DNA from: Balamuthia mandrillaris
Lineage: Eukaryota
DNA: 64,000 nt
Reading direction: 5' to 3'
Assembly: GCA_031835245.2 (NCBI GenBank)
Contig: JAVKOQ020000025.1
Coordinates: 248,001-312,000, forward strand
A program made the position numbers and the translations under genes. The notes under the pieces were generated by a model that was not told where the DNA came from, made no database searches, and saw only the letters and a program-made list of their open reading frames with translations. Positions 6,101 to 64,000 of the stretch are shown here, piece by piece. Every line of letters starts with the position of its first letter. Positions within the stretch are counted from its first letter, which is position 1.

Positions 6101-6489
6101 GGGTTGCAGGGTTTGATGCACAGCTACGTTGCCAGAGAGCAGCCACCGCTCCAGGTGAGTGGGTTCGTTTGAGAAGAAGATCTCTGTTTTGATAGGAGGA
6201 GAAATGCATCAGGGACCTCACTAAAGCTTGAGAGAAAAGATAGAAAAGACAAGAAAGAAAGAAAGAAGATAACAACACAGAAAGAACGAAAGAGAAATGA
6301 CGATGAGAAGAGAAAAGAGAGTCTCAGAGAGAGGGCAAGACGAGAGATAAGAGAAGAGAGACGAGAGATGAGAGATACAAGAGAAGAGAACGACGAAGAG
6401 AAGAGAAGAGAGAAGAGAAGAGAACGATGAAGAGAACGATGAAGAGTGTACTGAACTTGGAGGAGGAAGATCTTCAATGACGGAACCAT
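1566..6489 (-). CDS. Uncharacterised single-pass membrane protein similar to plant At5g58100-type proteins, multi-exon
   Basis: Exons encode VPVNLIFIGFDGDG, RFGFIDISAGPFRWG..V.G.GVR, IPIFLFSL..PVFID and DWLWSVG.NP; C-terminal TM helix followed by KVKTN*; start codon approximate. Confidence 0.7.
2601..2856. repeat. (GAGACA)n hexanucleotide microsatellite in an intron
   Basis: About 40 near-perfect units read directly. Confidence 0.97.
4442..4541. repeat. (TTTTG)n pentanucleotide microsatellite in an intron
   Basis: Read directly. Confidence 0.97.
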
Positions 6490-7100
6490 AGAGAAGGGAT
6501 TGTTCGTTGAGGGCCTCCCACGCCCCTGCCCGATGAACCTTCTTCGAATGAGCCTCACTCTAAAACAACAACAAGAGCAGATTAGTAGTCCTCAGAGGAA
6601 AAATATTGTTTGGGAAGAAGCGATAGACAGTGAGAAAAAAGAACAACGAGGGAGACAGGTTTTCTCACCAACTGAACAGACCACAAGCAGAGCAACAGAA
6701 ACACTGTCACCACACAGCCAAACTTTCTCATCTTTCTTGCTTTCTTTTTTCTATTTTTCACTGACTGACCACCATTGCTGCTCGAATGCTGCTCACAAAT
6801 CGTTGGAATTCTTAAGAATGCGCCGTGTCGTCACGGAAATATAAATATTTGAAGTACAAATGTTTTTCTGTTTTCGTGTCGTCACGAACTAACACACACA
6901 AAAAAGATGAGAGAAAGCAAAGAAGAAAGAGTTTCTTCCTCTTCATTGTTGCTCGACACTTTATCAGGTATTCTTCTTCTTCTTCTTCTTCTCCCCTTCC
7001 TTTACGCCCGTTAGGTTAACTCAAGTTACAACAACAAATAGCATGTTGCAAAGCATTTGAGGAAAGCCTCATTGTCGACATTAATCATCCACAAGATGAG

Positions 7101-9791: not shown

Positions 9792-10951
9792 AGCGCTTCG
9801 AAGCGGAAGGAGGGAGAGGAGGGCTGCGAGTGAACTCCTATGTTTTTCATTTGTTGACATCCATAATGCGCAAAAGACAAAACAACAACCAAGGGCATCT
9901 CGTTAGAAAAAGAGAGCAATTAGCAGAGTCTGTGAGAGAGGAGAAGAGAGAAAGGGTCCCAAGTGCCTCGCACAAATCTTGTTATATAATAAGATAGAAG
10001 CAAGAGAACAAAAAGGCCGAAAGAGAGGAAGAAAGAAGAAGGCGAAAGTAGAGGGAAGGGATCGTGTGGTAGTGTTGTTAGGAAGAGGGGGGAGGTCTGC
10101 AACAACTGGGTTCGGTTTTCAAACAAAAAAATGGGTCGGTCCACATCAGCTTCAAAAAAAACAAATAAAATAACAAGGGTGGCTGCCTCCTCCGATCCCA
10201 TTTTTTGTTGCTCCAGTTTTGTTATCGTCGTCTTCGTTGTCGTTCTTATGGGTTCGTTATCGTTGTTGTTGTTATTGCCGTTATTGTCGTTATTGCTATT
10301 AGTGCTTGTTGTTGAGGATGTTATTGTGTGTGCAGTACTTGTAGAAGGTAAGTTTTAAGGGGCATTTTCGAATCGCTCTCTCGCATTTTCTGGTTTGTAC
10401 AGCCGTAGCTACAAAGTGTACAAAAAAAAGGGATATACAGTAGGACTTGTTTACATGTTCGGGCGGGGTCAACGTACACGAGCGCTGCAATAATGTCCCC
10501 AGGGCTTTTTTACGGTTCGGTTATCCGTTCCCGTTGTCAAAAAAGTTGTGGTCACTTGCAGTAAAGAAGTGAAGAAGGAAGGAAAGGGAAAAAAAAAAAG
10601 AGGCGGGCAAAGAAGATGAAGAGGAAGAAGTGTCGCCGCACAACTTCACAATCTCTGCTTGGTAGAAGGAGGAGACAAGGGACCTTTCACGTCATCTCCT
10701 CCGCTCGGTTTCGTTGTTTTGTTGTTCGTTGGTTAGGTTATAGGCTGACGAGGAGAGATGTATCAAGCAGCGTTGTAGAAGGGTTGTTGGCGAAGAAGAC
10801 GAGGGAAGAGATAATAGAAATAAAATAAAAATAAAAATAAAGAAAAAACAAAATCAAAGTGGAAGGTTCGCCGCTGCCGCCACTATAATGATTTACGGTG
10901 TTGATGGTGAAGAAGAATGAACGCGGCGAAAAAAGAAATGAAAAAATCAAC

Positions 10952-13900
10952 TCAGAGGGGACGACTGCCAACCCCTCCAGCCGCCGCCGATAAGGCCATA
11001 AGCTTCTCCAACCTTGCGATGATGTGCTTGCCGTAGGTATATTTTTTCAGAGCGGGCACATGGGGCCGAATGCGCTGGATCAAGAGTTCGCGCTGATTTT
11101 CGTTGACGACATCAAGTATCTTTTGGATCACGTAGTTGGCGTATTGGTCCTTCATCATCACTTGGAGTGCAGTAGTGCTTTTGGAGAGAAAGTTTAGACA
11201 AAGCGAAACAACATAAGTGGAAAAGAGAGTACGAGTGAGAGAACAAGCGAACAGAGCGGCAGAAAAGAAGCGGGGAGATAAGGGAATGAAATACATACCC
11301 ATCAGGGCGCGGTTGCAAGATTTCATCAATAAGAACAGCGCGCTCGGAGTCGTCTCCATGCTGGACGCATTTCTCCACGACATTGCTAGCAAACTTGTGC
11401 TGACTGAGTTGCAAGATCTGGCCGCGAAGCTTCACGAAAATGGGTGCCTTGTCTTGAGGCCTTCCGTGCTCCAGCACATGCTGTATGACGTAATTGCCGT
11501 ATTGGTCTTGCACCAGGCTTATGGTGCAGCGCAGCAGCTCATCCAGAATAGGAGTCTGAGGAAGACAAGAAAGTCAGAGAGAAAAGAGTTAATTTTGCAA
11601 TAAAAGATGGATGGAGAAAAAGCACAAGGAAACAAAGATACCGTTTGTTGGTCGCCGCAGTACTCAAGGATACGTTGGATGACACGACAGCCGTAGGGAT
11701 GAGTGGCCAGGTGATACACTTGGCCGTAGAAGGTATCGACAATGAACTGAATGAGTTGGGAGGGCACCTTCTCGATGCACTTTTGAATGACGTGGTTTCC
11801 ATTCTGATCCTTGACGCACTTCATGACGTTGCCCTCCAGTTCTTTCACCAGTTGAGCTTGTTGCTCGATGCTGATGACCTCGAGCGCCTTCTGGATAACT
11901 CGGCATCCGTACATTTGCATGGAGAGAGGCAACACGTTGCCGACGAGCGTATCTCCTAGCACTTTGATCTGCTCAGGGGTGCCGTGCTCAAAGAACTTTT
12001 GGATGACATAGTTGCCAAAGACGTCGGTCATGAGTCGCAGGGCACTGGGCAGGATCTCGTTGAAGACCAATTGCTTGTCGGCCGGTCCCACCTCTTCCAG
12101 TTTTTGCTGGATGAACCTGGAACCATGTTGATCCCCGCTAAACTCCACGATGTGGCCGATGATGTCCTGCAAGGCGAACTTCCTGTTCTTGTTGTTGCGA
12201 AACTCTTCAAGAAGAGAGCTTCTCTGTAGCACCAGTCCACCAGCATCCTCGTGGGCGTGCATCACCATCTTGGGATGACCAGGGGCAGCAGCGATGGGTC
12301 CTACAGGAGAGACGCCTTTGTGGGGGTGTCCATGTCCAACAGCCACGCCGACACTGGGCGGCCACAATCCTTGCTGTTGATGCATGAGCGGTGAGCCAGC
12401 AGCTCCGCTAGCGCTGCCTCCTGGCGTCAATCCAGCAATAGCAACAGCATTATTCATGGGAGCCGCACCCACTGCTGGCCCGGCCATCATTCGCCTGTCG
12501 TCGAGTACCCGCCTGCCCTGATTGGAGGCTGGTAGGTAGGGAGGGGAGGTCGGTTGGTGATAATTGAGGTGGTTGCCCTTGTGACGATCGCCGCCCATGA
12601 GCTGCCTGGGGTCTCCAGGCTGTTGCTCCCAGGTAGAGGCGGAAGAGGAATAGTAGTCTGGCATCATGTTGATACCAGAGCTATGGCGGCGTTGTTGAGG
12701 CAAACTAGCGGACCCCATTCCCATTCCTTGCACCGAGTTCATGTTGGAGTACATGGGGGACATGGTTGGGCTGGTGGACGAAATGTCGGGAGGAGCTGCT
12801 CGCATTACGCCGCGCATTTGGCCTTGCGAGTGGCGAGCCCCCATACCGTTTGTCTCTGGATATCCCATCATGTAGCTCGTGCTAACAGGAGGTGATGTAA
12901 GAGGGGACATAGCTTCTACATAGCACAAATCGTGGAAAAATGTTAGCAAAGCGTACAAACAAGCGAATTTCATATTCAAAAACCGAGCATACCAAAACCT
13001 GGGTATTGACTGGGATAAAGCTGGTGACCGCCGATACCTTGTTGCATTGGAATGCGGCCTTGACTAGGGATAGGATAGTCTCCATAGTCCGAATAGTCAT
13101 CTTGGAACGCTCTTTTGGCCTCCACTTCAGATCTACTCATGCGAGTTGGAGTCTGGTTGTTTAACAAAGAATGGAAATTGAGTGGATTTGCTGTTTGGTT
13201 TGCTTTGTGATTGTGTGCTGGTTAACGGTACCTGGCCATCAGAGATGGAAAGACCATGCATCTGCGCTTGAAGATCAACAGTTGGATCACGATACTGAAG
13301 TTCAGGATAATACATTAGGTTTGGACGGCCACCGGTGGGGGACGTGTGGGCGTCTCCATGGCCTTGTTTCGAGCGGGCGTTTTCAGGAATATATTGAGCA
13401 ACGTCAGGGCTAGACTCAGGACTCTGTTGCTGTTGCTGCTGTTGTTGTTGAAGTTGCTGCTGTTGTTGTAACAGTTGCTGTTGCTGCTGTCTGGCCTTTT
13501 GGTAAACGGGAGACGGCGTACGAGGAAAATCTTGCTGGATCATGTCCACTGAAAAAGCAAAGGATTAGAAACGCGACTAAAGGGGGGAGAGAGAGAGAGG
13601 GAGTACCTAAAGAAATAGGCTTAACAGGAGATCTGGACCTTTGTGGAGCACCACTGCCTGGAGCTCGAGAGGAGGGCTCAACGTGCTGTGGTTGTTGTTG
13701 ATGCGACTGAGCGCTGTGAGGCCACCTTTCTTCGGAACCGGCATTCCATTCATTGTTAGAGCTTCTGGGTTGCGGAGCCACAATGTTTGAGGAGGAGGAA
13801 GATCCATTATAGTCAGAGTGTTCCGACAGGTGATTCAATTCCTAAAAAATAAATAAGAGAGTTGAAAATAAGTTTTGGTGGTGAGAGAGGGGGGAGGGAG

Positions 13901-28059: not shown

Positions 28060-31000
28060 TTACTTGCCAGCGTGGTAGGCAGCTGCAGCAGCATAGCCTT
28101 GGTGTTGTGGATGGTGGTTTGCGGCAGCTTCCATGCCCGCTTTGGCCACGGCAGCAAATGGACGCATTCCATAGCCGTTGTGGTTGCTGTTATTCAGTTG
28201 TTGTTGGCTTGTGGTAGAGGAAGAGGAAGAGGAAGAGGAAGAGGAAGAAGAGGAAGATAAGCCAAAGTCAGCGAACCCAGGAGGAGGCGCTCTTTGTTGC
28301 CCAACCGAAGTGGAAGAAGAGGAAGAAGGATGAAAGCCAATAGGGGCGATGCCCGGAGGCGGGCCTTGTGGTTTCTGCTGTTGAGAGACGGAGGGGGAAG
28401 CTGATATCTGTGGCACAAAATTGTTGCTTCCCAGTTGGTGTTGTTGCTGCAAGGCAAAGGCAGCAGCGGCAGCATAGGCCTTGTTGTATTGCTGGGGTGC
28501 TGTCACCCCCCATGCGTTGGCCTGTTGTGGTGGTGGTTGTTGTTGGCTCCGATGCTGCTGTTGATGCTGCTGTTGCTGTTGCTGTTGCTGCTGCTGTTGC
28601 TGTTGTTGTTGTGCAAAGGCATAAGCATGCATGAGGTACTGGTGAGAGCGGTGGCTCCAGGGATTATCTCCAACGATGTCCCCTCCCATGCCCATTCCCA
28701 TGCCGCCCATTCCCATCCCGCCCCAACCCATCGATGCCATGGCATTATTGCTTGTGCTGTGGTTGGTACTATTGCTGCTGCCGCCAGCGCTGCTTTTCGA
28801 GGAAGAAGGAGGAGAAGGAGATGGAGAGGTAGCAGTGGGAGGAGGATAAGAGGCTTGATGGGGTAGACCCCATGGTCCAGCACCGCCAAACAGAGGAGAG
28901 GAGAGCTGCTTGTAGGCACCAGGAGGAAAGCCACCCTGTTGGTGAGGATGAGCATGCGCATGTGGGTGCATAGAATGATGAACGGAAGGATGATGAGAGA
29001 GAGGATGTCCAACACCGCTGCTGCCCCAAGCTGAGGCAGAGGATGCGGGAGTTGCGGAGGAGGAAGAAGAGGAAGGATCCATCATCATTCCCGCCACCAT
29101 GTCGTGAGACAGTGAATAGGCGGAGGGTGGAGCCTTCGCAAAACTTATATTTACATTCGGGAGTAGATCTCGTAGGCTTTGTTGCAGGCTCTTTTGGTCG
29201 AGCGCGTTCTGAGTTTGAGTCTGAGGTCGAGTTTGAGGAAGGGGTTGTTGTTGCCCGGAAGGAAGATGAAGCTGGTGCGGCGGCGTCGAATAAGGAGAAA
29301 TGCCCATTCGATGGAGGTCAGGCTGTTCCACAGCAGCCTCATCAGAGGTAGGTGAAAGCACTCTACCGCCGCCTGAAGCAGAAGACGGAGAGAGGGAAGC
29401 AGCAGAGGGAGAGGAAGGTTGAATCTCTCTGGTGGACAAGGCAGCAGGAGGTGAGGTTGGACCTGGTCTGTGTTGCTGTTGAGAGGAAGATATTGATCTT
29501 TTCTCATCAAACTCAGAGGTAGTAGCCTGGGCTTCTGTTCTCGCGGAGGTCTTGCTTGGGCGTTGTTGCGATTGGACGGGAGGTGTGTCTTTTGTTTTAG
29601 CGTTGGTGGAGCGTTGTTGGTTTTGCACTTGTGCTTGTGACCGTTGTTCCTGCGTTTCTCCCGATGGCAAAGAACTCACCGACATCAAATCATATTCCTC
29701 CTGTTGAGCAAATGAAAACCTGGAGCGAGGTCGCTCAGACATTTGCGGCGATAAAGTACGAGAACTCGCACTGCCAGTGGCAACCACGGTACTGGCAGCT
29801 TCTGGTTCAGGGAGCAAGGGTGGCCAAGCGGTTTTGGTGGATGAAGATGACGGTTTTGCAGGAGTAGGAGCGGGGGTAGGGGTTTCATCTTTAAGACCCC
29901 CCTCCTCGTCTTCCACGAGCAGATCTTCCAGACCAAGTTCTGACCAAGGATCAAAGTCCAGGGCGTCGTCCGGCTCGTCGCGGCGAGGCTCGGCGACGGG
30001 CCTTCCCCAAGAGGAAGACATGACTTTGTCTACCCAAGAGGATGACGGAGAAAACGAGGAGGGAGAGGGAGAAGCGGCGCTGCCGTTGGGTGTTTGTTGC
30101 TTGTGATGCGAAGAAGAAGGCTTAGTTTTGTTTGAATCATTGGTGGGTATATCCCAGGCAGAGGTAGTTGTTCGAAGTTTGGTGCTATTACTATTACTGT
30201 TGCTGTTGTCGTTTGAAGTGGGCACAGTGCTTGAATCGGCTTCAGCCTTTGAAGCAGCAGGAGCTGCTTGTTTATTGGCGTCTTTTTTAGTTTCTCTGTT
30301 TTGTGGGGCGACTTTTTGCTTGTTGTTGTTTTCCTTCGCTTCGGCCGTTGCTGTTCCTTTTTGTGGTTTCTCTTTCTGTTGTTGTCGTTTCGTTGTTGTT
30401 TTAGAGGTTTCATTGGCCTTATTGGTTGTATTTGTAGTTGTCGCAGTTGCAGATTTGGAGGAGGTATCGGGGGTGGTAGTAGTAGGGGGCTTCTCGTCCT
30501 TCTTCTTTGCTGTGGTTCGGGACGCTGCAATAGTTTGTGTGGAAACAGCAGGCCCATTTCGCTGGATGGAAGAAGATACGCTTGTGGTTTGGCTTTGTTG
30601 TTGTTTGTTGTTGTTGGTTGAGACGGAGTGGGGTTGCTTGAAGGAAGCATTATTGGAACGGGCACTAATGTTGTCAACGCTGTGGTGGTTGTTGAGCTTG
30701 TTGCCAGCTACCAAGGCAGGAGTTCCATAATGAAGCACGGTGGTACCACCGTGAGAGTGGAGGTGTTCAGACGGAGAGACGCCGAGAAGAGGTGGGGGAG
30801 GACCAAGTATGGAGTCATCATTCTTGATTATTTGGGGGATAGTCGTTCCTTTCTTTGATACAGCGGGGGCAGACTGCGCCAAGGCAGCGTGGTTGCTGCT
30901 ATTATTGTTAGTGGAGGTGGTGGGTGTGTTGTGGTTATTTGTTGGGGTGGAAGTTGTGGTTTTGGCAGCCCAAGAGGCGGTGGCTGGGAGGGCAGAGGCG

Positions 31001-32952
31001 ACACGTTCTCGCTCTTGCAAGGAGTTTGTGCGTGTGTGTTGGTGAGGGTGGCTGTGTTTTTGAGCATTGACCATCTCAGCAGCGGCACTGGCGGATGGCC
31101 ATTCCGATGCGTTGAACTTGACCACTGCAGGTGGGGAGGTAGATACCGCTGTAACGTTCCACACGCTTTTTGGGGGAACGCGGGATGCAGTTTTCGTTTG
31201 TGCGACGTCGGGCTTGATGAGAATAGAAGAAGACGAAGAGGAGGACGAAGAGGAGGATGATTCGGAGCTGCCTTCCTGATTCCGAGCAGGATCTCTGGGA
31301 GAGCGAGGGCTTTTTGGAGAGTTGTGCTCCGAGGGTGCTGTTTGTGTTTGTGTTTGTGTTTTAGTTTTGGTGTCTGCCGTTTGTTCTCGTTTGTTATCTT
31401 CTTCTCTACTTCCCCCACTACCGTTTATGTGGGGGAAATGATCTGGATGATTAGCAAAGCTTTGCTCTGTGTCGTGAGCCGAGGGATCTCCCTCTGAGCT
31501 ACCGTTGTCGTTGGCAGCATGCTCCATCAACTCCGCCATGGCGGAACCAGGGGAATACTCCGGAGAGGCAAAGTCATCAATAGAATCAGGGGGTGGTAGC
31601 CCTTCGTAGGGCAGTTTCCTTCTTCGTAGGCCCGAAGAGGGATGGATTTGGTGATGGAAGCTGCTTTTTCTAAAGATGAAAAGTAACTAAGGGTTAGAGA
31701 TGGAGGAAAACAGAGAGGAAAAGAGCAGGCAGGAAAGGGAGGGAGAAATGCGATACCCTAATGCCATTTCTTCTTTCGTAAAACTGTCATAATCACCGCC
31801 CAATTCATGCAGATACATACAATCAGGGTTTGTGCAAGGGACATTTTTAAGAAAGTATGTGCAATATTTCGTTGTTCCGAATGAGGCTCTGTATATTTAA
31901 AAGAGTTTGATGAAACGCAAATGTAATAATGTGGCCAACAATAGTAAAGTGAGTGAACGATAGAACGATTGAAGCAAAAAGGAACGAGGATTACCTTAAC
32001 GTGCGGCTCCCAAGCCATGCTCCATCCACTGCTTTAATGGCCAAAAGTGCATCCTCATCCTCGTAGTACGTTACATACGCACTAACACTTGGACCTCCGA
32101 CAGAGTTCACGTTGTAGAGATTGTTCTTGTTGATTACAACCTTTTGTATCTTGCCATACTGTCCGAAAAACTCTTGTTTTCTCAAAATCTGGCACGAACT
32201 CGTGTGAGACCCCATGCAAGATTTCACAAGTGTTTTTGAAACAAAAGGGGTGAAAGGCAAAGGAAGCAGCATACCTCTTCTTTGGCATACAAAAGGGCCA
32301 AGTTTGTGATGTAAACGAGATTGCGCTGTATGACGCGCACGTTGGCAAGGTTCTTTCGCGTTGAAGCAGACAAGCCCCCATTTGACATTCCGCCTCCGAT
32401 CACTCCTCCCGAAGAGATAGAAAGAGAGGAAGTGCTATTGGAGGAGTTGGTTAGCCCAGCTTTACTTCGTTTGCGCTCTTTGTTCTTTTTCTTTTTCATC
32501 TTGGCGAGTCTGGGGAGAGGCCACAATTAGTGAAGGGTAGAAAACAAAAAAAACACCAGGACAAATGACAAGAACAAATGACAACACGAAGAGCAAAGCA
32601 GGGAGCAGGAGGGGACAGCGGGAAGCTTACTCTTCCGGGTCAGGAGGAGTGAAGGAATAGTTTTCAGGGTCATAAGGTTTGCGGCAAGCAGGGCATTTGC
32701 CGTTAAGATTCTCTTTGATGTGATGCCAGCAGAAGCGACACATCTTTGGGCAAACAAAAATAAAAAGGGGAGTGTTAGTGAAGACAGGAAGATGGAAGAC
32801 AAAAGATTTTTGGAAGTGAAGCGAAGAAAAAAAACCTGATAGCCGCACTGGCAAGGATGAAAGTGTCTGTCCGTGATGTCTAGCTCTTCCAAACAAAGCG
32901 GACAAAGCACTTCCTCCTCCGATGATGAATTCTCTGCGTCTAGAGCAGACAT
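28060..32952 (-). CDS. CNOT4: CCR4-NOT E3 ligase subunit CNOT4/Not4 (RING + RRM + CCCH, long disordered tail), multi-exon
   Basis: CPLCLEELDITDRHFHPCQCGYQ.CRFCWHHI...CPACRKPY; LANVRVIQRNLVYI; FFGQYGKIQKVVIN; SFGTTKYCTYFL. Confidence 0.95.
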
Positions 32953-40092: not shown

Positions 40093-40568
40093 TCCGCTAG
40101 CACACTTTTGTTTCTTGGCCCGTTCTTTCTGTGTGTTAAGATGTTGTTGAATTCGCTCGCTCTCCCGCAACTCTTCAAAGGTATTGCCCAAACCTGAGGT
40201 CCTCCTGCTTCTTCTTTTATTGCGTTGTTGGTGGGTGGGTGGTGGTGGTGGCAGTGGGTTACAAAAAATGACAAACAATAAGTAACTCTGAGTGACCAAA
40301 AGTTTTCTTCCTGTCTACCTTTTTTTTCCATTTGCCATTTCGCTTGTGTGCACAAGTTGCGCAATTCCCTTGCTCCCTCCCCGGTTTTTAGGATAATTTT
40401 CCGTTATTTTCTTTCCCCGCTTTGCTAGGTTTCGACGCCCACCCTCGACAATTTTATTTGTTGAAAAAAGAGAATGATCAGATCCTGGAGGAATTCAAAC
40501 TAAGGCGGCGCAAAGATCATAAGATCTAAGGACAACGAAAAAAGAAATCCCGACATTAGTCTTTTGGG

Positions 40569-40593
40569 CCAATGAGCATGTTTCCCGCCAAAA
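40569..40593 (+). promoter_or_regulatory. CCAAT box plus E2F-type site TTTCCCGCCAAAA in element left end (also 61060-61084)
   Basis: Identical in both element copies; function inferred. Confidence 0.55.
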
Positions 40594-41054
40594 CAACCCT
40601 TCCTTCTCCCACGTCTCTGAAGGCAAAGTGGTAGGGTGGGTTGTGGGGTGGGGTGAATGGAATGGATGCTCATGCTGCTGCTGCCGCCAATAAACTTTTG
40701 GTACTCGTCAGTCGCCTTGACATTTTTCTGCTACTCGTTTTCTTTTCTTCTCTTCTCTTCTTTTCTTTCTTTTCAAAAGTAAACACACAGACATCCACGC
40801 AGCTCCACGCACCACCGTATTTCTCATTGCTACGCTTCTACTACACAAGGAGGAAACCAGCGGAAGGAGGCAGAGGTGGAAACCGAAGCGGTTCAGCCGC
40901 AAGCAGGGGCACTGCTCCGATTGAAAAGGTAGCGTTCTTTTTTCTCTGCTCGCTCACTACATTTTTTGATGATGGAAAAAAAAATTTGTTACCAACCTCT
41001 CACTAATGATTTCTTTTGTTTAAAAAAGAACAGCATCACGAACCTCTGTGCGCC

Positions 41055-41546
41055 AAGGTCAACCACAGACAACGGCGCCGTCTCCGAAGGGCCGCTGCTC
41101 GGCTTCGCCAGAGGATCCGCAACCTGGTGGATGACCTCCACAAGAAGCTCGTGTCTTGGTTGGTCAGGAACTTCTCCGTCATCCTTCTGCCAGAGTTCAG
41201 GAGCCAGCAGATGGTGCGGCGAGGCCACCGCCGCATTGGCTCGCGAACGGCCAGAGCCATGCTGACCTGGTCCCACTATCGCTTCAGGCAGAGGCTCCTC
41301 AACAAGGCCCAGCAATTTCCGTCCTGTACGGTCTGCCTCTGCGATGAGGAATACACCTCCAAGACCTGCGGCAAGTGCGGCCAAGTCCACCACCAGTTGG
41401 GGGGAAACAAGACCTTTCGGTGCCCTCAACCCGAGTGTGGCTACCAGGCGGATCGAGATGCCAACGCCGCCCGAAACATCTTGATCCGCTTTTTTACGTT
41501 GCAAGCACTTACCACCTCCTCCTCCTCCTCTGTGAGGGGGCGGTAG
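41055..41546 (+). pseudogene. Fanzor2/TnpB C-terminal half (bridge helix, RuvC-II region, Zn ribbon, RuvC-III)
   Basis: RIRNLVDDLHKK..W.VRNF..ILLPEF, MLTWSHYRFRQRL, DEEYTSKTCGKCG, FRCPQPECGYQADRDANAARNIL; N-terminal part deleted at ~41054. Confidence 0.92.
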
Positions 41547-41720
41547 GCGGTAAGGTTGCTTTGGTGCCGGCACCGTTGCTTATAGCGAGTCGTAAGATAA
41601 GCCGTGATTAGGCACGCCGGAGGTGGGTTATTTTTTGTGTCTCTGTTTTTTGTTTTCCTTTTACTAATTTTGCTTTATTTTCGTTGTCCCATTGATCGGC
41701 TTGATCTTGGCGCCGCCTTA
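41500..41720 (+). ncRNA. Candidate Fanzor omega-RNA (guide scaffold) region
   Basis: Lies between the nuclease ORF end and the right TIR, as in TnpB/Fanzor loci; several short hairpins; boundaries unknown. Confidence 0.45.
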
Positions 41721-42146
41721 ATTCAAACAGCGCTGACGTAGGCCAACGTCAACGAACATAAAGCAAGAACATAAAAGTTCCCCAGCGAAGGAAGAACGGA
41801 AGACGTGCGTTGCGTGCCTTGACTAAAGGCGGGCCTTACGCCTTTTCGTCTTTCTCCTTTAACGCAGACGCAGTTTAGCAGTTGGTGAAACTGCAACCCG
41901 CTTTCTCCCTTTCTCCTTCGCCTCCTCTTGCCTTTTTGCTCTCTTCCTGCGTGCTCTCTCGCCTTCCTTTTGTTGGGAAGGGAGAAAAAAAAGAACAGAA
42001 CCTATCAAAAAAGAGGTGAAAGAATAGAAGCGTCAGTCTTTCTATTCTTTCACTTTCTTTCTGCTCACCTGCATATATTTATTGTATGAGGTGTTTGGGT
42101 GGTTGTCGCTCGCGAGAGCTAGCCCACACAGCAAAGCAGAAGCTTG

Positions 42147-45100
42147 ATGGCGGGGGATGAGGGGGGCGTGTTCGACGTGGTTGACTCCTTTTCCAATGAT
42201 GACATATGGCTGCTTCTGGTCATTGTCTACGGCATCATCATAGGTGCCAACTTCCTGTGGGAACTGCTGACGGACGTTCTCGAGCACGTACGTTCTTCAC
42301 ACTCCTTTTTTTAAGGATCAACACTCCGGACAAAAAGAGGATCTCTTCTTTCTCGCCTCTGACTATTTTATTTTAATATGCGTTTCTTCTTTTCACAGAT
42401 TCTCTCGAAAGAACAAACCCATCTGCTTTCTATGTTGCACAAGCTTTACAAGGAACTTACCATCATTGGTCTTATTTCGATGGCCTTTTTCATTGTGCAG
42501 ATTTCAGGACTGATCGACACTCATACAAAGGTACTGCCCTCCTCTTCTTCTTCTCTTTTTCATTTGTGTGCGTAGTCCGGACTTCATTTGCTCATCAGAA
42601 AGCGCTTCTCTCTCTTCTCGTATTTTGCTTTCTCCCTCAATTCTCCCTCATTTTTCCCATCCCATCCACTGCAGCACGTGTTTGAGTTTGTACATATCAA
42701 CTTGTTCATAATGGTCATATTTTATATTTTGATGGTCGTATTCGTCGCCATCTTGAGTATTGGCATTTATCGGCGCTGGGAAAGTCTGGAGAGTGCTGAT
42801 ACAGGTGCTCTTTCCTTTCTCTGCTCTGCGTCTCTCCCTCCTCTCCTCCGACTAACCTTAAATTGAATGATGTAAAGATGAGGTGGAAAGCGAGAGAGAA
42901 GCCATTTCGGAAAAGAACCGAACTCGAAATTGGGTGGTGGTGGCGCTGGACGTTTTTACCCACTATAAGGCATGGCGGTTACGGTCGGCAAGTGGCTATC
43001 ACCAAGTACGAGAGCATTTCCTACAGCAGGTGGGTTGTGTTGTTTGTTTAGGAGCAGTTAATGCGTACTGACAAGCACTCGCTTGTGGTTGTAATATATA
43101 GCACAACCTACCCTCCAATTTCAAATTTCACAGCTACCTTACAAGAGCCATGAAGTCGTTGTTTGTTGAGTTAGCAGAGATACATTGGTCTGTACTGTTC
43201 ATAGTGGTCTCCATTCAGCTGGCGGTGTTACTCCCCTTTGGCTTTACTCAAGGGGAGGAGGATCTCGGCATCCCTTTGCTGGTGTTGGAGCTCCTGCTCA
43301 TCGCCTTCTACTTTATCCTGTACTATAAAACCAATCGCATTTGGAACATCTTAAAACGGAACAAGCAGATCATGAAGGAGTCTAAGCAGGTCAAGCAAAA
43401 GGAAGAGCACAAGTTACAACTCGAGATGGAGCGAATAGAAAAGGTGGAGCAGAAACTGAAGAAGGAAGGTGCTGCCCCATCAGCACCTCCTTCTGACCCT
43501 GCAGCAACAGCTTCTACCCCTACAAATAGCTCTTCCAGAGAGGGACAAGGCAGTGCCGCCTCTCTCGGGACAGAAGATGATCCTCGCCGCAGTTCAAAAG
43601 ACACTGAAGACAGCGGAGAAGAAGGCTTGGGGCGGAAGGAACTGGTAATCGGACCCACTGGACTTAAGGAATCAAGACCCACCAAGCGAGCAAAGAAGGG
43701 CAAAAAGGTGAAGGCGCGTAAGTTGTCTGCGAACAACACGAAACAGGATGGTGAGGCTTTAGAACTTGAGGAGGAAGAGCAAACACTTCCAGCCGAGGAA
43801 GCGAATGCTGCGGCACGAGGTGTTACTGCGAAGACCCACGAGAACTCGGATGAGGAATTAAATCAACCTGCGCGTCCGTTTCACACTCGTAAAAGTGAGT
43901 ATGGAAAGGGAGAGGAATCAACAGTCCCTACGACAACAGATGTAGAGGCAGAGGCAAAGGCCAAGCTCCGTTCCGACAGCGAGGCTATGGGTAGCAGCAA
44001 GGAGGAAGATAAGACAGCAGACGGTGCGCCCGATCATCGGGACAGGAAAAAAAACATTAAAACCTCTCATTATGGACGCATTACCCAATACAATGACACA
44101 AGCAGCTGTACAACCACAACCTGCCGCGATGCTAACGCCGAGAGTGAAAGCGATAGCGACTATGAATTCTCATCTTCATCGCTCTCTATGGATGATGAAG
44201 AGCAGCAAAAGCAGCATGCTCGTGCTGATTTTGCACATTCTTCCAAGCCACCTACTCCCAACCCACAAACAGAAGCACTGGACCCCATGATTCTTGGTTG
44301 GGGAACTCCATTTACGTATCCCGCCCTCGCTGAAGCGCTTGCGCAGAACAATAATAGCAACTGGGCTACGACACGAAGTTCGTCACAAGCGATGCTTGGT
44401 CCCGCTCTTCCTCTCTACAAACAAGGCAATGCCCCTGCCCTTACTGCTTCTTATTCCTACTACTCTTCTTCGGAGGAAAGCTGGGAGAGCGAAGACTGGT
44501 CAACAGATTCAGAGGCCTCTGCTTCTTCTGGCTACAGCAGCAGTTCCAGCAATGGCTGGTATAGCACCAGCAACCGTTCCGGAGGAACCAGCGATTCGGA
44601 TTACAGTGGCGACGGCGTCAGCAGCTCTGGCTTCAACCAGAGGCACGGCGAGGACACTGAGGATGAAGATGCAGGAAAGAGAGCAACAGGGCATCATCAT
44701 GGCCAGCATCACCACCACCATCACCATCACCATCACCATCATCATACAGAACATCATCGGAGCAACCATAAATCCTCTGACGCTCATCACTTTCAAATCG
44801 ATTTGCAGTTCATCACTAACTTTCTGTGGCCTCTGTTTCGATGTAAACTCTCCAAAAAAGACGTGGCCCATATGCTCTGTAGACGAAATTCTGAGCACGA
44901 AAAGTTGTTCTGGTTCTCTTCCCCAAGTTTCCTCTTCTATTGTATTTCAGTGGTGCTATTCTTTCAAGCCGCTCAAATCGCCTTGATCATGGCCTTCGCT
45001 ATCGGCATCATCGAAGTACACATCACGTACCGCATTGCTCCAATTTTCACCGCCCTCCCAAATATCCTCCTCTTCATGCCCGCCATGCTCTACAACTACG

Positions 45101-46023
45101 CCATCATCATCAATGTTGGAGAGTTCACCAAGCTGGATGTGGTTGAGGAAATTATGGCCAAGAGCCACAAGCCCTCTCGCAGGAGCCGAAAAAAGGATCG
45201 CAAACGCCAGAAGGAGTCTAGCAAACGCCGCTTCTTCCTCTTCCGCAGAAGAAATAAGAAGCATGCAGGAACAAACCTGGATCGCATTGGTCCTACTGCT
45301 CCTCACCACCATCACCACCCTCATCGCCATCACCACCATCATCATCGCCAAGAATCCAGTAGTCGTCAACCCTTGCCTTCCTCTTTCCTACCGCCGTATC
45401 TCCAGAATGGAAACAACAGGAACGCCAACGGCGAAGGAGCACCTCTTCCGTATCCTCTTACCGGAGAAGCTCTCATGCATGCCATTGGTGTGCATCAGTC
45501 AATAGACAGCGCGCTATGTCCTAATCCTTGGTTCTCAACTCCTCTTCAAGCAGCTTCCTTTCTCTCCTCTACTGATGCTAAAGTTGACGAAAACGAAAAT
45601 GAGCAGGAAGATGATGACACCCAAAACCAAAGCCAAAATGAGGAGGATCTCCATCATCACCATCACCACTATCGGCGGCGTCCTACTAACAGCACAACTA
45701 CTCTCAAGCAAGGCCGGCAACGAAGCAGCACTTCTTCTAGTGCTACCACAACGACTAGCACCACTAGCAGCAGTAGTAGTAGTACTAGCGGCTCTCGTAT
45801 TTATCACCAACAGGAAGAGGCACATCAGCATCATCGCTATTCGAAGCAACCACTGCAGCAGCATCAGCCATACAACTATCGGCATCACCGATTGGATCAC
45901 TATCTGGCCGCTGATATTGCAGCAACTACTTCTACAGCCCCAATTCCTGACGATGATTATGACAGCGGCACTGATACGGACGACGCTGAAGTGCACCATC
46001 ACCACCATCACCATCACCACTGA
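42147..46023 (+). CDS. MLO-like seven-transmembrane protein with large low-complexity insertion and His-rich tail, multi-exon
   Basis: LHKLYKELTIIGLIS, FVHINLFIM, RRWESLE, NFKFHSYLTRAM..F.EL.EIHW, LFWFSSPSFLF. Confidence 0.8.
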
Positions 46024-58317: not shown

Positions 58318-60726
58318 ATGAGGAGGAGCCCTGCCACCGCCATGGGAAGGCTGCTGCCGCGCCAAGCCAGCCCTGCTGCTGCTGCTGTGGCTGCGGCATT
58401 ATTGCCCTCACGCAGCCCTGCTTACTGCCGTCACCTTGTTGGTGGCGCTGGCAAACCTTTGTGGTTGGGGTCATCACATCCAAGTTGGGGGGTCTCCCGG
58501 CCTCTTGCTCTCTCTGCCTCAGGCAATGGGGGGAGGCACGGCTACCACAGCGAACGTGACTTCAACGTAATGGACGGCACTATTGAGGCCACGCCCGAGG
58601 AAAGAAAGGCCAATTCCGAGAATATGAGCAAACTCGTAGCTGAGCTGCGCCAGCAGATAGATCTGGTCAAACAAGGTTCGTTGGTTTGCTCGCTTGCCCC
58701 CCCCCCCCACTGCTGAGCTCAGGCATGGCAACATGTTTGACTGTCGTCACACCAACATTCCCTCCGTTTTGTTGTTGTTTGAAATTGCAAAAAGGCGGAG
58801 GAGAGAAGGCTCGCCAACGACACACGTCCAAAGGCAAGCTTCTTCCCAGAGAGCGTGTGAACCGCCTTCTTGACCCAGGGTAATACCCTCCCCTCCTTTT
58901 ATGTATTTTTTTTGATGAATTTTGCTTGCTGTTGGCCAACAATTCCTTCCTGTGAATGCCTTTTCTGATCCCTCCGTAGTTCGCCGTTTCTGGAGTTCTC
59001 ACCACTGGCTGGACATGAACTCTACGATGAAGCAGTGCCCAGCGGTGGCATTATCACTGGCATTGGTCTTATACACGGGTATGCTTTTCGAAAATTAATT
59101 CTTCTCTCTCTCTCTCTCTCTCTTGCTAAGCTCTTGATTTTGCTTCTGTCATTAGTCAAGAATGTGTAGTAGTGGCCAACGATGCTACTGTGAAGGGAGG
59201 CACTTACTACCCCATAACTGTAAATAAACATTTGCGCGCTCAAGAAATTGCCCAACAAAATCGATTACCTTGTGTCTATCTCGGTTTGTAACTACCATCC
59301 CTTTCAACTTATGTCTCTCTCTCGCTCTCTTTCACTCTTTCACTCTTAACTTTTACTAACGAATGAAATATTTGGTTGTGTGGATGCAGTGGATTCTGGA
59401 GGAGCAAACTTGCCTCGTCAGGACAACGTATTCCCGGACCGCGAACATTTTGGCCGTATATTTTTCAATCAGGCTAACATGTCAGCGATGCGAATACCCC
59501 AAGTACACCCACTCTTTAGATTTTACTGTTGTAGGTGATCCATTGACTAAAACGGACGGCATTCCATTGCAAACCAAACAAGTAGATAGCAGTGGTGATG
59601 GGATCATGTACTGCAGGAGGAGCCTATGTTCCCGCCATGTCAGATGAGTGTGTGATTGTCAGAAAGAACGGCACGATATTTCTGGGTGGCCCTCCTCTGG
59701 TTAAAGCCGCCACCGGCGAGGTCGTCACTGCAGAGGAACTGGGAGGTGCTGACCTGCATTGCAAAGTATCAGGCGTAACTGATCATTATGCAAATGATGA
59801 TGAGCACGCCCTTATCACTGCCCGTAATATTGTGAAGAACCTGAACATTCAGAAACCTTCACATTATCGCCCTTCCTCACCTATCGAAGAGCCACTTTAT
59901 CCTGCGGAGGAGCTTAACCAAATCGTTCCCTCTGACCTTAGAAAACCTTATGACGTGCGTTCCGTAATTGCTCGCGTTGTTGACGGCAGTCGCTTTGATG
60001 AATTCAAAGCGCTCTACGGACAAACTTTGGTGACAGGTACTCATGCTGTGCATTGCGTGCCACAACACTACCACTAACGCAACCAACGTGATAGGCTTTG
60101 CAAATCTATATGGCCACAAGATTGGAATAGTGGCCAACAACGGCATTTTGTTCAGTGAATCGGCCAAAAAGGGCGCCCACTTTATTGAGCTCTGCAATCA
60201 GAGGGGCATTCCTCTCCTCTTCCTGCAAAACATTACAGGCTTCATGGTGGGTAAGAGCTTCGAGGCAGGAGGCATCGCTAAGGATGGTGCCAAGATGGTG
60301 ATGGCGGTGGCGTGCGCCCAAGTGCCGAAGCTCACCCTGATCATAGGGGGCAGCTTTGGCGCTGGCAACTACGGCATGTGTGGACGAGCCTACAGCCCGC
60401 GCTTCCTATGGATGTGGCCCAATGCTCGCATCTCTGTGATGGGAGGACAGCAGGCAGCTAGTGTATTGGCACAGGTACGCAGGGACGGCCCCCAAGGCAA
60501 GGACTGGCCTGCTGAGGCCGAGCAAAAGTTCAAGCAAGGGATCGAGGCCCAATACGAGCGGGAGGGACACCCTTATTACTCCTCTGCTCGTCTATGGGAC
60601 GATGGCATCATCGCGCCCACCGAGACTCGTGCAGTGCTTGGCCTTGCCTTGACTGCCACTTTGAACGCGCCAGTGCCTTCTCCTCTCTCTCCTTCACAAC
60701 TGCCTTTTGGTGTATTCCGTATGTAG
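58318..60726 (+). CDS. MCCC2: Methylcrotonoyl-CoA carboxylase beta chain, mitochondrial, multi-exon
   Basis: [86 protein letters not shown]. Confidence 0.97.
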
Positions 60727-61322
60727 TCCTGGTAGTTGCAAATGACCCATCCCCGATTTGTCTTGACTGCCACAACACTTTTCAGCAGAAAAAAACTATT
60801 GCCCTCATCTATTGATTGCCATCTTAAATTCTCTCTTCACCTTCACTCTTTCGTCCTATTATTAATGGACATCGGCAGCACCATTGCCAAGGTTGCGACT
60901 AGCCTGGACGCTGCCTTTCAGCGTGAGGTCCAAATCCAAGCGGAGCAATGGAAGGACTTCAGGCAACCACTGCTCCTTGCGACCAGTAATCCTGAGGCGG
61001 CGCAAAGATCATAATATCTAAGGACAACAAAAAAAGAAACCACGAATTAGTCTTTTGGGCCAATGAGCATGTTTCCCGCCAAAACAACCCTTTTCCCTCA
61101 GCATCAGGCAGGGGTGGAAACTGAAGCGGTTCAGCAGCAGGCAGGGGCACTGCTCCGATTGAAAAGGTAGCGTTCTTTTTTCTCTGCTCACTCCACTACA
61201 TCTTTTGATGATGGAAAAAAAATTGTTACCAACCACTCACAAATGATTTCTTTTGTTTACAAAAGAACAGCATCACGAACCTCTGTACGCCTGTTCCACA
61301 ACGCTACTGGAAGCTGGCCTGA

Positions 61323-62420
61323 ATGGCAAGTTGCCCACAGTGCGGAAAACAGTTTACTACCTCTCACGGGTTGGCCATCCACTTCGGAAGGGGTCGCGCC
61401 ACTACTTCTGCTACTTCCACTGCTACTCGGAAAAGAAGAGCGGAAAACGCCCCGGCAGCACCTCACTCAAGGGCATAGAAGCGTGGAAGGCCGCAGGCTC
61501 CACTCGCCCAGCCCTTTTGGAACCAGTTTTCCAGCGAAATCGTGAGAAGCTTGATACGCCCGGAAGCCTTGTCCCTGGAAGAAACCTTTGCCCGTGGTTC
61601 AGGATGGTTCACCGCCTGCAAGCACATTCCAAACGGAGAAACGGTGTTGGAGGAGGAAGAGGAGAAGGAGAAGGAGGAAAAAGAGGAAGAGGAGAAGGAA
61701 GAGGAAGAAGAGGAAAAAAACCAGAAAGGCTTGTTAGACCTCATCGAGGGACTCATTCCGTCTCGCCCAGACGTACAGCTCACCAAAAAAGGCAAGAGAG
61801 CAGAAACCGGTAGTGGGGCGATTGGAGAAGATCCGCCTTTATCTGCGCTCGGAACAAAAGAAGACGCTGGCCAAGTGGTTCGGCACTGCACGATGGACCT
61901 ACAACAAGGCCGTGGAGTTCCATCGTGAACATAAAAGAATGCCTATGAAGGAGATGAAGGAACAAGTCAGGGAAAAATTCCTGAATAACGGCAATTTCAA
62001 CGGAGAGGACAAGAGCCTTGCGAGACTGGCTCTTGTCCACCAGATGAACGGCATAGAGCACCTCCGACGGAGAGCTCATGGGCGAGAGCCAAGCCCGTGA
62101 GCACCGAAGGAGAGAGGCAGGCATCATCGCCTTGGATCCAGGAGTGCGCACTTTCATGACCACCTACAACGGCTGCGGGGAGGTCACCGAGTGGGGCAAC
62201 GCGGACATCAACGAGACAGGCAAGCTGTGCCACCGCCTGGATCGCATGCAGAGTAAGGGCACCAAGGGCAACCACAGACAACGGCGCCGTCTCCGAAGGG
62301 CCGCTGCTCGGCTTCGCCATAGGATCCGCCACCTGGTGGATGACCTCCACAAGAAGCTCGTGTCTTGGTTGGTAAGGAACTTCTCCCTCATCCTTCTGTC
62401 AGAGTTCAGGAGCCAGCAGA
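61323..62420 (+). pseudogene. Fanzor2 N-terminal and central part (C2H2-like finger, NTD, HTH/WED start, RuvC-I), disrupted
   Basis: MASCPQCGKQFTTSHGLAIH; TAG at 61476; PFWNQFS..I..L..P..GWF; frameshift near A6 run 61785-61790; KIRLY...QKKTLAKWFGTARWTYN; IIALDPGVRTF; 62264-62420 differs from 41055-41211 at 6 of 157 nt. Confidence 0.9.
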
Positions 62421-62554
62421 ACGACGGATGGATGGATTTTTTTTTGGGACCCTACTCTCTACCCCAGACTTCTGAGAAAGAAACAACCACAAGCTGCTCG
62501 CTGCAAGTGGTAGAGTGGGGTTGGGATTCGTATGCTCAGAAGGTGGGACATACC

Positions 62555-63015
62555 TCTTGACGGGATACTCCTCTTCCTTCTCGACGGGATGCTCCTCCTG
62601 ATCCTCCTGACGAGATGCTCCTCCTCCTTCTTCTTGATGGGATGCTCCTCTGCCTTCTCGACGGGATGCTCCTCCTCCTTGACGAGATGCTGCACTCCTT
62701 CTTCTTGACAGGATGCTCCTCCTCCTTCTTGACGGGATGCTCCTCTTGCTCGACGGGATGCTGCCCCTCCTCCTCACCACCTTGCTCCTCTTCCTTCTTG
62801 ATGAGATGCTCCTCTTCTTGACGGACGCTCCTCTTCCTTCTTGACGGGATGCTCAGCCTTCTCTTCGACAGGATGCTCCTCCTTTTCCATGGGATGCTGC
62901 CCCTCCTCTAAGACGTTGTGCTATCAATCCTCCTCAACAGGACACTGTCCCTTCCCAACTCTCCGTGCTGGAGTGCCACAACTGAAGGGATGCTCCTCTC
63001 CTTGATGGGATGCTT
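62555..63015 (-). repeat. Degenerate ~24-nt tandem repeat (GAGGAGCATCCCGTCGAGAAGGAA-like, encoding EEHPVEKE-like units) inside element copy 2
   Basis: More than ten recurrences of GACGGGATGCTCCTC-like cores on the + strand. Confidence 0.85.
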
Positions 63016-63087
63016 TCCTTTCTCCTACTGCTCGTCTGGACGTCAGCTGCCCCTTGATGTCCTCCTGCAGGCCAGTATATCCATACT

Positions 63088-63185
63088 GCCAACCCGTGAG
63101 AGGTAGTAAACTGTTTTCCGCACTGTGGGCAACTTGCCATTCAGGCCAGCTTCCAGTAGCGTTGTGGAACAGGCGTACAGAGGTT
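63088..63185 (-). repeat. Perfect 98-bp inverted duplicate of 61278-61375
   Basis: Base-by-base reverse-complement identity. Confidence 0.95.
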
Positions 63186-63376
63186 AGTATATATCTTTTG
63201 TGGTCGGAATAGCCAGTCTCAGCATCCAAGCCAGGGAGTGGAACCACAACAGCTCCATCCGCCAACTCTACTTTGGGGAGGTGGGTTATTTATTTCCTCT
63301 GTTTTTTTCCCTTTTAGCTTTATTTTTTCATTGTCCCATTTGATCGGCTTGATCTTAGGCATTCAAGTGCTGCCTA

Positions 63377-64000
63377 CTACTCAATCATACTAAATAAGTC
63401 ATCTACCGAGGCTTTTTTCTCTTCTATTTCGGTTGCCAGCTGTGAATGTGTTGCGGTTCCTTGTATAAACTGTGTTCAACGACAATGAGCCCAAATATAG
63501 TTTTCAAGAACAAAGAAAACATTACCTCTTTTGCCTCATCAAAAGTAACTGCACTATCTTCGGTTTCTGTGTTCATAATTAAGGATATGCCTGAGTCCAC
63601 GATTGCCCTCCAGAAGGGTTGGCCTTTGTACTTTTCCTGTAACTGAAACAAAAAGTCGTTGAATTGTTGCCCTTCTTCTTCCAAGATACAACCTTCTCGT
63701 AAAGCTTGGAGACACTCCAGAGCCTTAGGAAAGAGTTGATAGCCTAAACTATCATCAACCAGCTGAACAATTCGTTCTTTCATTTGGCCAATAGCTGCAA
63801 AGCACAGTTGTGAATAGATTGTGCTCCGAAAAGGAGAAACAAACCTTTATCCACTAGGTCAATGTCCCGGCGGGCAATCATATCCTTGAAGTCTTTTGCT
63901 GGCTTCACTGAACCAACGTCCATGCAACCTGCTGACATCAATGTTTCCCTACGAATCCAAAGTTAACAAAGGTTGATGCGCTTTGCTGGAAAAGAGACTG
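63377..64000 (-). CDS. XRCC5: Ku80 C-terminal region (gene continues beyond window)
   Basis: VGSVKPAKDF, KALECLQALREGCI.EEE..FNDFL, FW..IV..GISLI...E..S.VT.DEA; final exon EKKASVDDLFSMIE*, resembling the DNA-PKcs-binding tail. Confidence 0.88.

Follow-up and report, generated by a model that had tools for sequence, protein, structure and literature searches.

A 64,000-nucleotide stretch of Balamuthia mandrillaris DNA (contig JAVKOQ020000025.1, positions 248,001 to 312,000; hereafter the window) carries a mobile element, copy 1, in which part of a Fanzor2 RNA-guided nuclease gene lies between terminal inverted repeats (TIRs) flanked by a target site duplication (TSD). Our best explanation of copy 1, to which we give an even chance of being right as a whole, is that it is an internally deleted member of a multi-copy TIR family, in which an IS607-derived Fanzor2 without its recombinase would be moved by a hAT transposase and would use a guide opened by the TSD. 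The account is built on ends shared by copies in many different flanks, an element-free allele, an 8 bp TSD at this site, the motifs and fold of a Fanzor2, the absence of the IS607 recombinase TnpA, and low-level, partly spliced transcripts.

Copy 1 occupies 1,220 bp, 40501–41720, with inverted ends TAAGG..CCTTA. The left TIR (40501..40560, + strand) and the right TIR (41661..41720, − strand) share a 19 bp core with a single mismatch (18 of 19 bases agree), and a gapped alignment extends the likeness to about base 58. A TIR extended to 100 bp was considered and rejected: its inner likeness is weak, 142 of 2,000 shuffles being as good. Allowing up to three mismatches, the terminal 18-mer occurs three times in the window (40501+, 41703− and 60993+), as compared with 0.09 expected. 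Immediately outside the element the 8-mer ATTCAAAC stands at 40493..40500 and, as an exact copy, at 41721..41728, where the guide would be predicted to start; two random 8-mers from the window would be identical with p = 6e-5. Public sequencing runs were compared with the window, four as contigs and the others as RNA runs (X21, X22, X23, X11), and the points at which their matches break off are referred to as loose ends. Although the letters of the window alone also permit a 9 bp TSD, with an extra A on each side, we read 8 bp because the loose ends of several runs fall at exactly 40501 and 41720, placing the terminal bases inside the element. The TIR element starting TAAGG and its exact duplication, both claimed by a first-pass annotation, are therefore borne out in coordinates and repeats.

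The nuclease is a Fanzor2. The C-terminal part kept by copy 1 (41055..41546, +) contains ILLPEF, whose Pro aligns opposite the canonical Glu of TnpB, itself absent; a shifted Glu (41346–41348) in EEYTSKTC, six residues before a CxxC..CxxxxC zinc finger, the second Cys pair being the CxxxxC; the RuvC-III Asp in DRDAN (41451–41465), after the finger; and a stop codon. The DPG of RuvC-I is deleted in copy 1 and present in copy 2, a second copy in the window, and in 9 of 12 annotated Balamuthia proteins; in six annotated copies 138 residues separate it from the shifted Glu. DPG, the Glu shifted to just before the finger at this spacing, the Pro in place of the canonical Glu and DRDAN match the Fanzor fingerprint as defined in PMC10711439; a distance of 120–160 residues from DPG to the Glu is expected in the DPG/Ealt clade. 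Wherever the catalytic motifs are present among the copies they are unchanged. Pfam finds HTH_OrfB (PF12323), OrfB_IS605 and the TNB finger, and the best PDB match by sequence is mimivirus Fanzor2 (E 1e-17). A Foldseek search with a model of the annotated protein P0126 (mean predicted local distance difference test score 70.7) likewise returned mimivirus Fanzor2 (9b0l) at E 3e-17, as compared with 2e-3 to 4e-3 for SpuFz1. Motifs, Pfam, sequence and fold thus all support the identity first proposed, and the proposed motif set (DPG, the Pro of ILLPEF, the relocated Glu, DRDAN) stands, with the amendment that copy 2 reads ILLSEF.

A deletion with short microhomology at its junction (41050..41055, +), near which other copies have loose ends (41053/41054), has taken the start codon, zinc finger, WED/REC and RuvC-I from copy 1 (residues 1–412 of P0126). 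With these residues lost, copy 1 cannot encode the nuclease and would only donate RNA. On the 5′ side of the nuclease frame is a 105-nucleotide GT..AG intron (40929..41033, +), skipped in a joint of run X4 and marked by loose ends of spliced type in X21, X23 and X11; NCBI models join identical exons. X4 is labelled ‘DNA?’, yet its patchy cover resembles RNA; none of the indexed runs that contain the element is recorded as RNA. Seven reads of X21, six of X23 and one contig of X11 connect the upstream exon with the full-length start in a manner compatible with splicing.

Copy 2 (60993..63356, +; NCBI gene model P0275) is rearranged. It begins with TGAGG and has no TSD, and the final 12 bp of its right end are missing; three blocks shared with copy 1 are 93–96% identical and the right end 77%. 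The copy is interrupted by a stop and a frameshift and has undergone an inversion and an insertion; about 105 middle codons are missing or displaced. The true start of the nuclease is likely to be at 61323, a start that P0126 and P0274 share; it opens with a C2H2-type zinc finger (61323..61400, +; Pfam zf-C2H2, E 1e-4, below the curated cut-off), after which come basic and acidic tracts. The HTH/WED part and RuvC-I follow (61780..62419, +; DPG at 62135–62143), the middle being deleted and partly inverted. Copy 2 had been said to supply the N-terminus and RuvC-I; the DPG and the N-terminal part are indeed there, but the two copies do not add up to a whole protein. The insertion (62421..63188, −) is a 24 bp tandem array (62555–62883) fused to an inverted 101-nucleotide copy of 61275–61375 at 63088–63188. 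Over 62421–63087 (−) the array reads as EEEHPVKK-like repeats, and the fused inverted piece includes the nuclease start; beyond that piece, minus-strand translation of the insert gave only repeats.

At 93%, the best protein match to the nuclease is an entry called ‘Transposase [Balamuthia mandrillaris]’, which belongs to a cluster of 10; two further proteins were found, one of them P0275. The first 170 residues of the nuclease have relatives in Balamuthia alone, and the C2H2-like start pattern occurred in one of 135 long DPG-bearing proteins compared, P0126 itself. NCBI calls P0125 and P0127, both of this family, BRCT-domain protein and TFIID subunit 3-like.

Loose ends at 40501 with mixed flanks were found in at least five contigs each of X1 and X3, at least 10 reads of X21, at least 14 of X22, and at least three instances in X11. 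At 41720 the corresponding figures are at least nine contigs in X1, seven in X3 and three in X14, with at least seven reads in X22 and at least four instances in X11. One X1 contig (record 2) joins both flanks with no element between them at depth 20.4, the filled junction having depth 17.7. Because the runs break at the exact ends into many flanks, and because an element-free allele exists, the element is mobile and multi-copy. Across most of the element the summed depth in X1 is about 6,000–23,000, as compared with 14–135 in the flanks; single element contigs reach 479 in X3 and 83 in X14, where single-copy contigs have depths of 6–22 and 8, respectively. Run depth does not equal copy number; these values imply at least tens of copies, and the summed depth of X1 suggests hundreds. 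Many copies in the public runs carry internal deletions, and in several runs the end bins are deeper than the interior, which suggests relatives sharing only the termini. X1 and X3 also contain short derivatives resembling MITEs (miniature transposable elements with inverted repeats), for example with 40521 joined to 41627 or 40608 to 41664. A joint in X1 from 41720 to 40501, at single-copy depth, places two elements in tandem (head to tail), 19 letters apart, as local hopping or a circle junction would.

The nuclease probably came from an IS607-type element. We gathered 160 related loci (L001–L160), the metagenome scan covering 19 of 64 parts. TnpA is carried by 102 of the 130 that have enough upstream DNA, and all 16 motif-bearing open reading frames (ORFs) of related loci that were tested are resolvases. 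In an IQ-TREE phylogeny (66 of 114 rows, midpoint root) the Balamuthia sequences form a long branch within a 44-row clade (SH-like approximate likelihood ratio test 93), their sister not being resolved. This clade comprises 19 loci with TnpA and two without (21 informative), seven that are too short and 16 proteins without context. It is because the related loci and the clade mostly bear TnpA that we infer this origin. A sister relationship to L018/P0019, seen with FastTree, was dropped, as IQ-TREE did not keep it.

The element itself is not an IS607: it lacks a serine recombinase TnpA and possesses TIRs and an 8 bp TSD. A TnpA profile built from 13 relatives found no trace in either copy or anywhere in the window. 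The nuclease and the TIRs travel together, as the first-pass annotation held in placing the nuclease within a TIR element. That annotation had also allowed for an independent IS607-like unit merely inserted in an unrelated TIR element; such a landing was probably the origin of the element, but as an independent unit it does not persist, separate mobility no longer being seen. Scanning the 160 loci for TIRs with a TSD gave at least 21 candidates, none with convincing TIRs and an 8 bp TSD, many contigs being too short to hold both ends. The end pattern gave no match in viral contigs and five in prokaryote genomes, as compared with 8.7 expected by chance, with no further likeness. In many of the IS607 relatives (L002–L157) the first part of the nuclease ORF is shared, in a different frame, with the resolvase ORF. 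The PFW..WF motif encoded in that overlap is kept in Balamuthia after the loss of TnpA, which suggests that it works for the nuclease.

IS607 relatives have, 3′ of the nuclease, a hairpin with a 3 bp stem whose loop is complementary to the right end of the element (37 loci picked by that property). A profile of this hairpin was made from 23 relatives chosen for having the pseudoknot, so that the 16 held-out loci alone serve as a test; nine of these 16 have an exact loop complement. In copy 1 the best profile match of the 3′ region is a predicted pseudoknot hairpin at 41563..41574 (+), with a 3 bp stem and loop G-CCGGC, homologous by gapless alignment to that of the IS607 relatives; an equally good score together with a complete stem is reached at 15 of 127,964 positions in the window. 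Its loop (41567–41571) has three possible partners: an exact one at 41616–41620, one at 41706–41710 with four pairs, two of them wobbles, and one in the right TIR at 41712–41716 with four Watson–Crick pairs of five. The exact complement is followed by AG (41616..41622, +), making it a candidate for the old IS607 right end, 98 bp inside the end of the element. Comparison of the 3′ region with 69 relatives revealed no direct DNA likeness, and Rfam gave two weak matches there, below threshold. The right ends of relatives L002–L087 are NTAGG-CG-like, and their pseudoknot loops covary (for example CCTAC/GTAGG, CCTAG/CTAGG, CTTGT/ACAAG).

A long stem is predicted at 41616..41700 (+), in which 41616–41627 pairs with 41688–41700 around a U-rich loop of 60 nucleotides. 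The block 41688–41700 is where the right TIR differs from the left, and its upstream pairing is worth −18.0 kcal/mol (20 of 1,000 shuffles as good), as compared with −7.4 for its left-repeat counterpart. Such a stem would bury the old strand at 41616–41620 and free the strand at the tip; in a fold that frees the tip strand, all six right-specific bases are paired. A stem first considered, 41594–41604 with 41697–41708, was set aside as an alternative, non-independent pairing of the same repeat block. On these structure predictions we lean, by a little, towards an RNA boundary that has shifted to the transposon tip rather than a fixed internal guide.

The steps that we propose are as follows. 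First, an IS607 unit would have inserted into a TIR element, some 100 bp in from its right end; the unit would then have shed TnpA and acquired a zinc finger and introns. A hAT transposase from elsewhere would move the element in trans. With the strand at 41616–41620 buried by the right repeat, the tip at 41712–41716 would take over as its replacement, and transcription continuing through the right end would yield an RNA with a guide that begins at the TSD or immediately before it. The guide, formed by the 8 bp duplication and the flank, would direct nuclease made by intact copies to element-free versions of the site. If the TSD were the target-adjacent motif (TAM), the filled right junction would be a target for itself; the TSD is thus predicted to act as a guide seed, with the TAM 5′ of it. 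By analogy with TnpB and Fanzor, we consider it somewhat better than an even chance that the nuclease, by cutting sites that the element has left or never occupied, favours repair on a filled template and thereby maintains the element.

Several results weigh against this account. The empty X1 allele is diverged and not clean, with 56 letters between the matched blocks as compared with 22 in the window, and with a 19-nucleotide gap on the right. (That gap was not counted as a cleavage scar, being unplaceable; it is present also in X3.) Because X1 keeps the empty allele beside the filled one, this site has not been homed. A single two-sided TSD pair is readable (one of one intact site, 8 bp). 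The hAT target pattern nTnnnnAn, which the window's TSD fits, is found in two of five single-locus flanks, the window's and one in X4, all but the window's being one-sided; the misfits are one flank in X21/X23 and two at the X1 tandem joint. As for the RNA, ensemble pairing is low for two of the six right-specific bases (0.27 and 0.11), the whole 3′ region is no more stable than shuffles (z −0.88), the tip register forms 4/5 pairs (−5.7 kcal/mol) where the internal one forms 5/5 (−9.6), and total energies do not separate the two (−66.1 versus −67.7). At 41698 and 41609 there are minority variants that would be incompatible with the long stem. RNA reads are few (78–170 per run), alike on both strands, and show neither a pile of starts or ends nor an excess over the predicted RNA. 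A scan of 52 of the 227 listed window ORFs found no hAT transposase (PF05699). Finally, none of the 12 annotated proteins carries all seven landmarks, and the earlier expectation that intact copies probably exist elsewhere is not borne out by this set. Two of them, P0001 and P0122, break at a G run (41399–41404) where a one-base loss makes up 15% of X1 depth and 3% of X3 depth and does not occur in X4 or X14; since this loss varies across runs, some frame breaks may be read errors, and intact nuclease copies elsewhere are plausible.

The incomplete proteins, together with two broken copies in the window, the many internal deletions and the low RNA signal, could be expected if the Fanzor unit were dead or neutral cargo, amplified by the transposase alone in copies that act as large MITEs. 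Cut-and-paste transposition itself leaves a break, so any benefit of the nuclease may be small (PMC13565253). We nevertheless consider such a passenger unlikely. The catalytic motifs are unchanged wherever they are present, the breaks in P0001 and P0122 may partly be read errors, spliced transcripts run on into the full-length start, and the right repeat departs from the left where pairing is possible.

Less likely again is a guide that has stayed fixed, the RNA still ending at the old IS607 end (strand 41616–41620, scaffold end about 41622), so that the constant inner right end would be the guide and the nuclease would cut and convert Fanzor-free members of the same TIR family, as a homing element inside a transposon. 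The strand at 41616 is the sole exact 5/5 complement of the loop and gives the strongest duplex, but an exact 5-mer also arises in 890 of 5,000 shuffles of the region (18%), and it lies 49 nucleotides from the loop, as compared with 54–199 for the exact complements of relatives. Folding of 41505–41622 gives compact stems that leave loop and strand free; in full-length folds, however, the would-be guide is paired. A six-T run follows 8 nucleotides later, the deletion joint of copy 2 falls at the old-end boundary, and relative L018 also has AG after its strand, but L018 is a sister in FastTree only and not in IQ-TREE. Two further features fit this reading and our preferred one alike: four variants of one copy each affect a loop or a linker of the small hairpins, and at 41598 a G–C pair is regained with the majority base. 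No Fanzor-free sibling breaks at 41623 among the loose ends listed; siblings share the last 35–60 bp only, and the inner likeness of the repeats is weak, as noted above. The fullest version, in which an old IS607 RNA end 98 bp inside the hAT right end supplies a fixed guide that converts Fanzor-free siblings while hAT transposition spreads the element, has in our view a slim chance. A milder form, in which the boundary shift is under way, with the TIR tip as new pseudoknot strand and the variable 8 bp TSD as guide seed rather than TAM, is possible, though short of an even chance; no Fanzor structure so far reported has that arrangement.

Duplications of 8–9 bp are made by P, Merlin and MULE elements as well. 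The mover here is probably a hAT transposase encoded elsewhere. TAAGG at both ends gives YARNG-type termini with a short TIR core, and 8 bp TSDs and YARNG ends are hAT hallmarks (PMC3014272), as is the target nTnnnnAn (PMC10368747); hAT hallmarks are further described in PMC3942097. By eye the element end resembles those of hATm in a literature supplement, and hATm makes TSDs of 8 or 9 bp (PMC6004678). Membership of hAT, resting on the end motif and one TSD pair, is likely: of the earlier claim for a hAT family, the ends and the 8 bp TSD at one site stand, and the superfamily is to be taken with that degree of confidence. Another superfamily with 8–9 bp TSDs (hATm-like, MULE, P, Merlin), or an IS607 recombinase acting in trans, is an improbable mover: although one TSD pair was seen, a 9 bp reading is possible in the window (hATm itself using either length), one copy lacks the terminal A (X23, three reads) and one locus departs from the element at 41624 (X22, four reads), many copies fix symmetric TA..TA ends, IS607 gives neither TIRs nor TSDs (PMC13565253), no loose ends pile up near 41622 among those listed, and the window has no trace of TnpA.

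Both copies lie among eukaryotic genes (PEX11, Ku80, Pumilio and L40e among the ORFs scanned). Copy 1 is about 180 bp upstream of the PEX11 frame (over 40314–40500), and copy 2 (60726–63424) has a carboxyl transferase gene on one side and, on the other, a Ku80-like gene, whose 3′ end faces it. Elsewhere in the window, a 1,208-codon open frame (28060–31686, −) has no Pfam match, its Atlas matches all being below 0.9, and a 973-codon frame (43102–46023, +) has a weak Mlo-family match (E 3e-6). Such a match is unusual for an amoeba.

Capture of a Fanzor2 by cut-and-paste elements is itself known. Fanzor2 in elements with TIRs and TSDs (‘Fanzor2*’) is described from Chloropicon primus and molluscs in PMC10711439, which predicts that TIR and TSD lie within the RNA scaffold; hAT appears among Fanzor2 neighbours in a search within 10 kb (PMC10530073), and PMC13565253, a 2026 review, mentions hAT–Fanzor cases in Repbase. 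The recruitment of a Fanzor2 by a cut-and-paste family, as first suggested for this locus, therefore holds as regards capture with TIRs and TSD, while its novelty was overstated. A literature search for Balamuthia and Fanzor returned no paper, and Balamuthia is not named in the Fanzor texts and supplements searched. With TIRs and a TSD around a Fanzor2, and ends common to many copies, the element is a Fanzor2*, likely of hAT type, in an amoebozoan. Like the Fanzor2* of PMC10711439, it has no IS607 TnpA, is a cut-and-paste element with a TSD, has a TIR within the predicted scaffold and keeps a predicted pseudoknot hairpin with candidate partner strands. It differs in its amoebozoan host, in ends and a TSD that point to hAT, in its N-terminal C2H2 finger and in its introns; the TIRs of the Chloropicon and mollusc elements are degenerate.

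With the Fanzor2 proteins of IS607 and IS607EU elements and the pro-Fanzors (mimivirus ApmFz2, PDB 9B0L; L001–L160) it shares the HTH-WED-RuvC-zinc finger layout, DPG, the shifted Glu, the N-terminal PFW..WF motif and the homologous pseudoknot hairpin 3′ of the stop codon. Unlike them, the Balamuthia element has no serine recombinase, possesses TIRs and a TSD, and ends about 100 bp past the candidate old end; its hairpin loop is CCGGC in place of CCTA(C/G). NlovFz2 of Naegleria lovaniensis (PMC10432273) is likewise an amoeba Fanzor2, with motifs similar by eye and no TnpA reported, but the NlovFz2 and MmeFz2 loci seem, as described there, to be without inverted repeats, whereas the Balamuthia repeats and TSD are clear. 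The Spu-1 Fanzor1 elements and ghost loci of the same paper also belong to a TIR family that is non-autonomous, no transposase lying within its ends and many of its copies being partial or RNA-only; Spu-1, however, encodes Fanzor1 and uses a short fixed target (CATA TAM), where Balamuthia has a Fanzor2 and an 8 bp target that varies between flanks. Non-autonomous hAT elements (Ac/Hermes type; hATm) have the same YARNG ends, many deletion derivatives and 8 bp TSDs fitting nTnnnnAn, as at the window's one intact site, the difference being that the cargo in Balamuthia is an RNA-guided nuclease; the ends of Acanthamoeba hAT-NA3/NA5 (CAGTG..) differ and were ruled out as a match.

The family is a large Balamuthia repeat mis-named in public annotation (BRCT, TFIID-like), and its nuclease adds to the compact Fanzor2 proteins one that is naturally extended by a zinc finger. 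What appears to be new, as the predictions suggest, is that the IS607 hairpin is kept with its exact partner about 100 bp inside the end, and that the right repeat departs from the left where it is able to pair over that partner. Reported Fanzor structures have the 5′ TSD in the TAM and the 3′ TSD in the RNA scaffold (PMC13565253), an arrangement suited to targets that are short and fixed, such as TA; where the duplication is 8 bp long and variable, TAM and target would both be present at the filled right junction. With its many copies and polymorphic sites, the Balamuthia family would show directly how the wiring of a Fanzor changes when a low-specificity DDE transposon captures it, a step that has been proposed to lead from Fanzor2 to Fanzor1.

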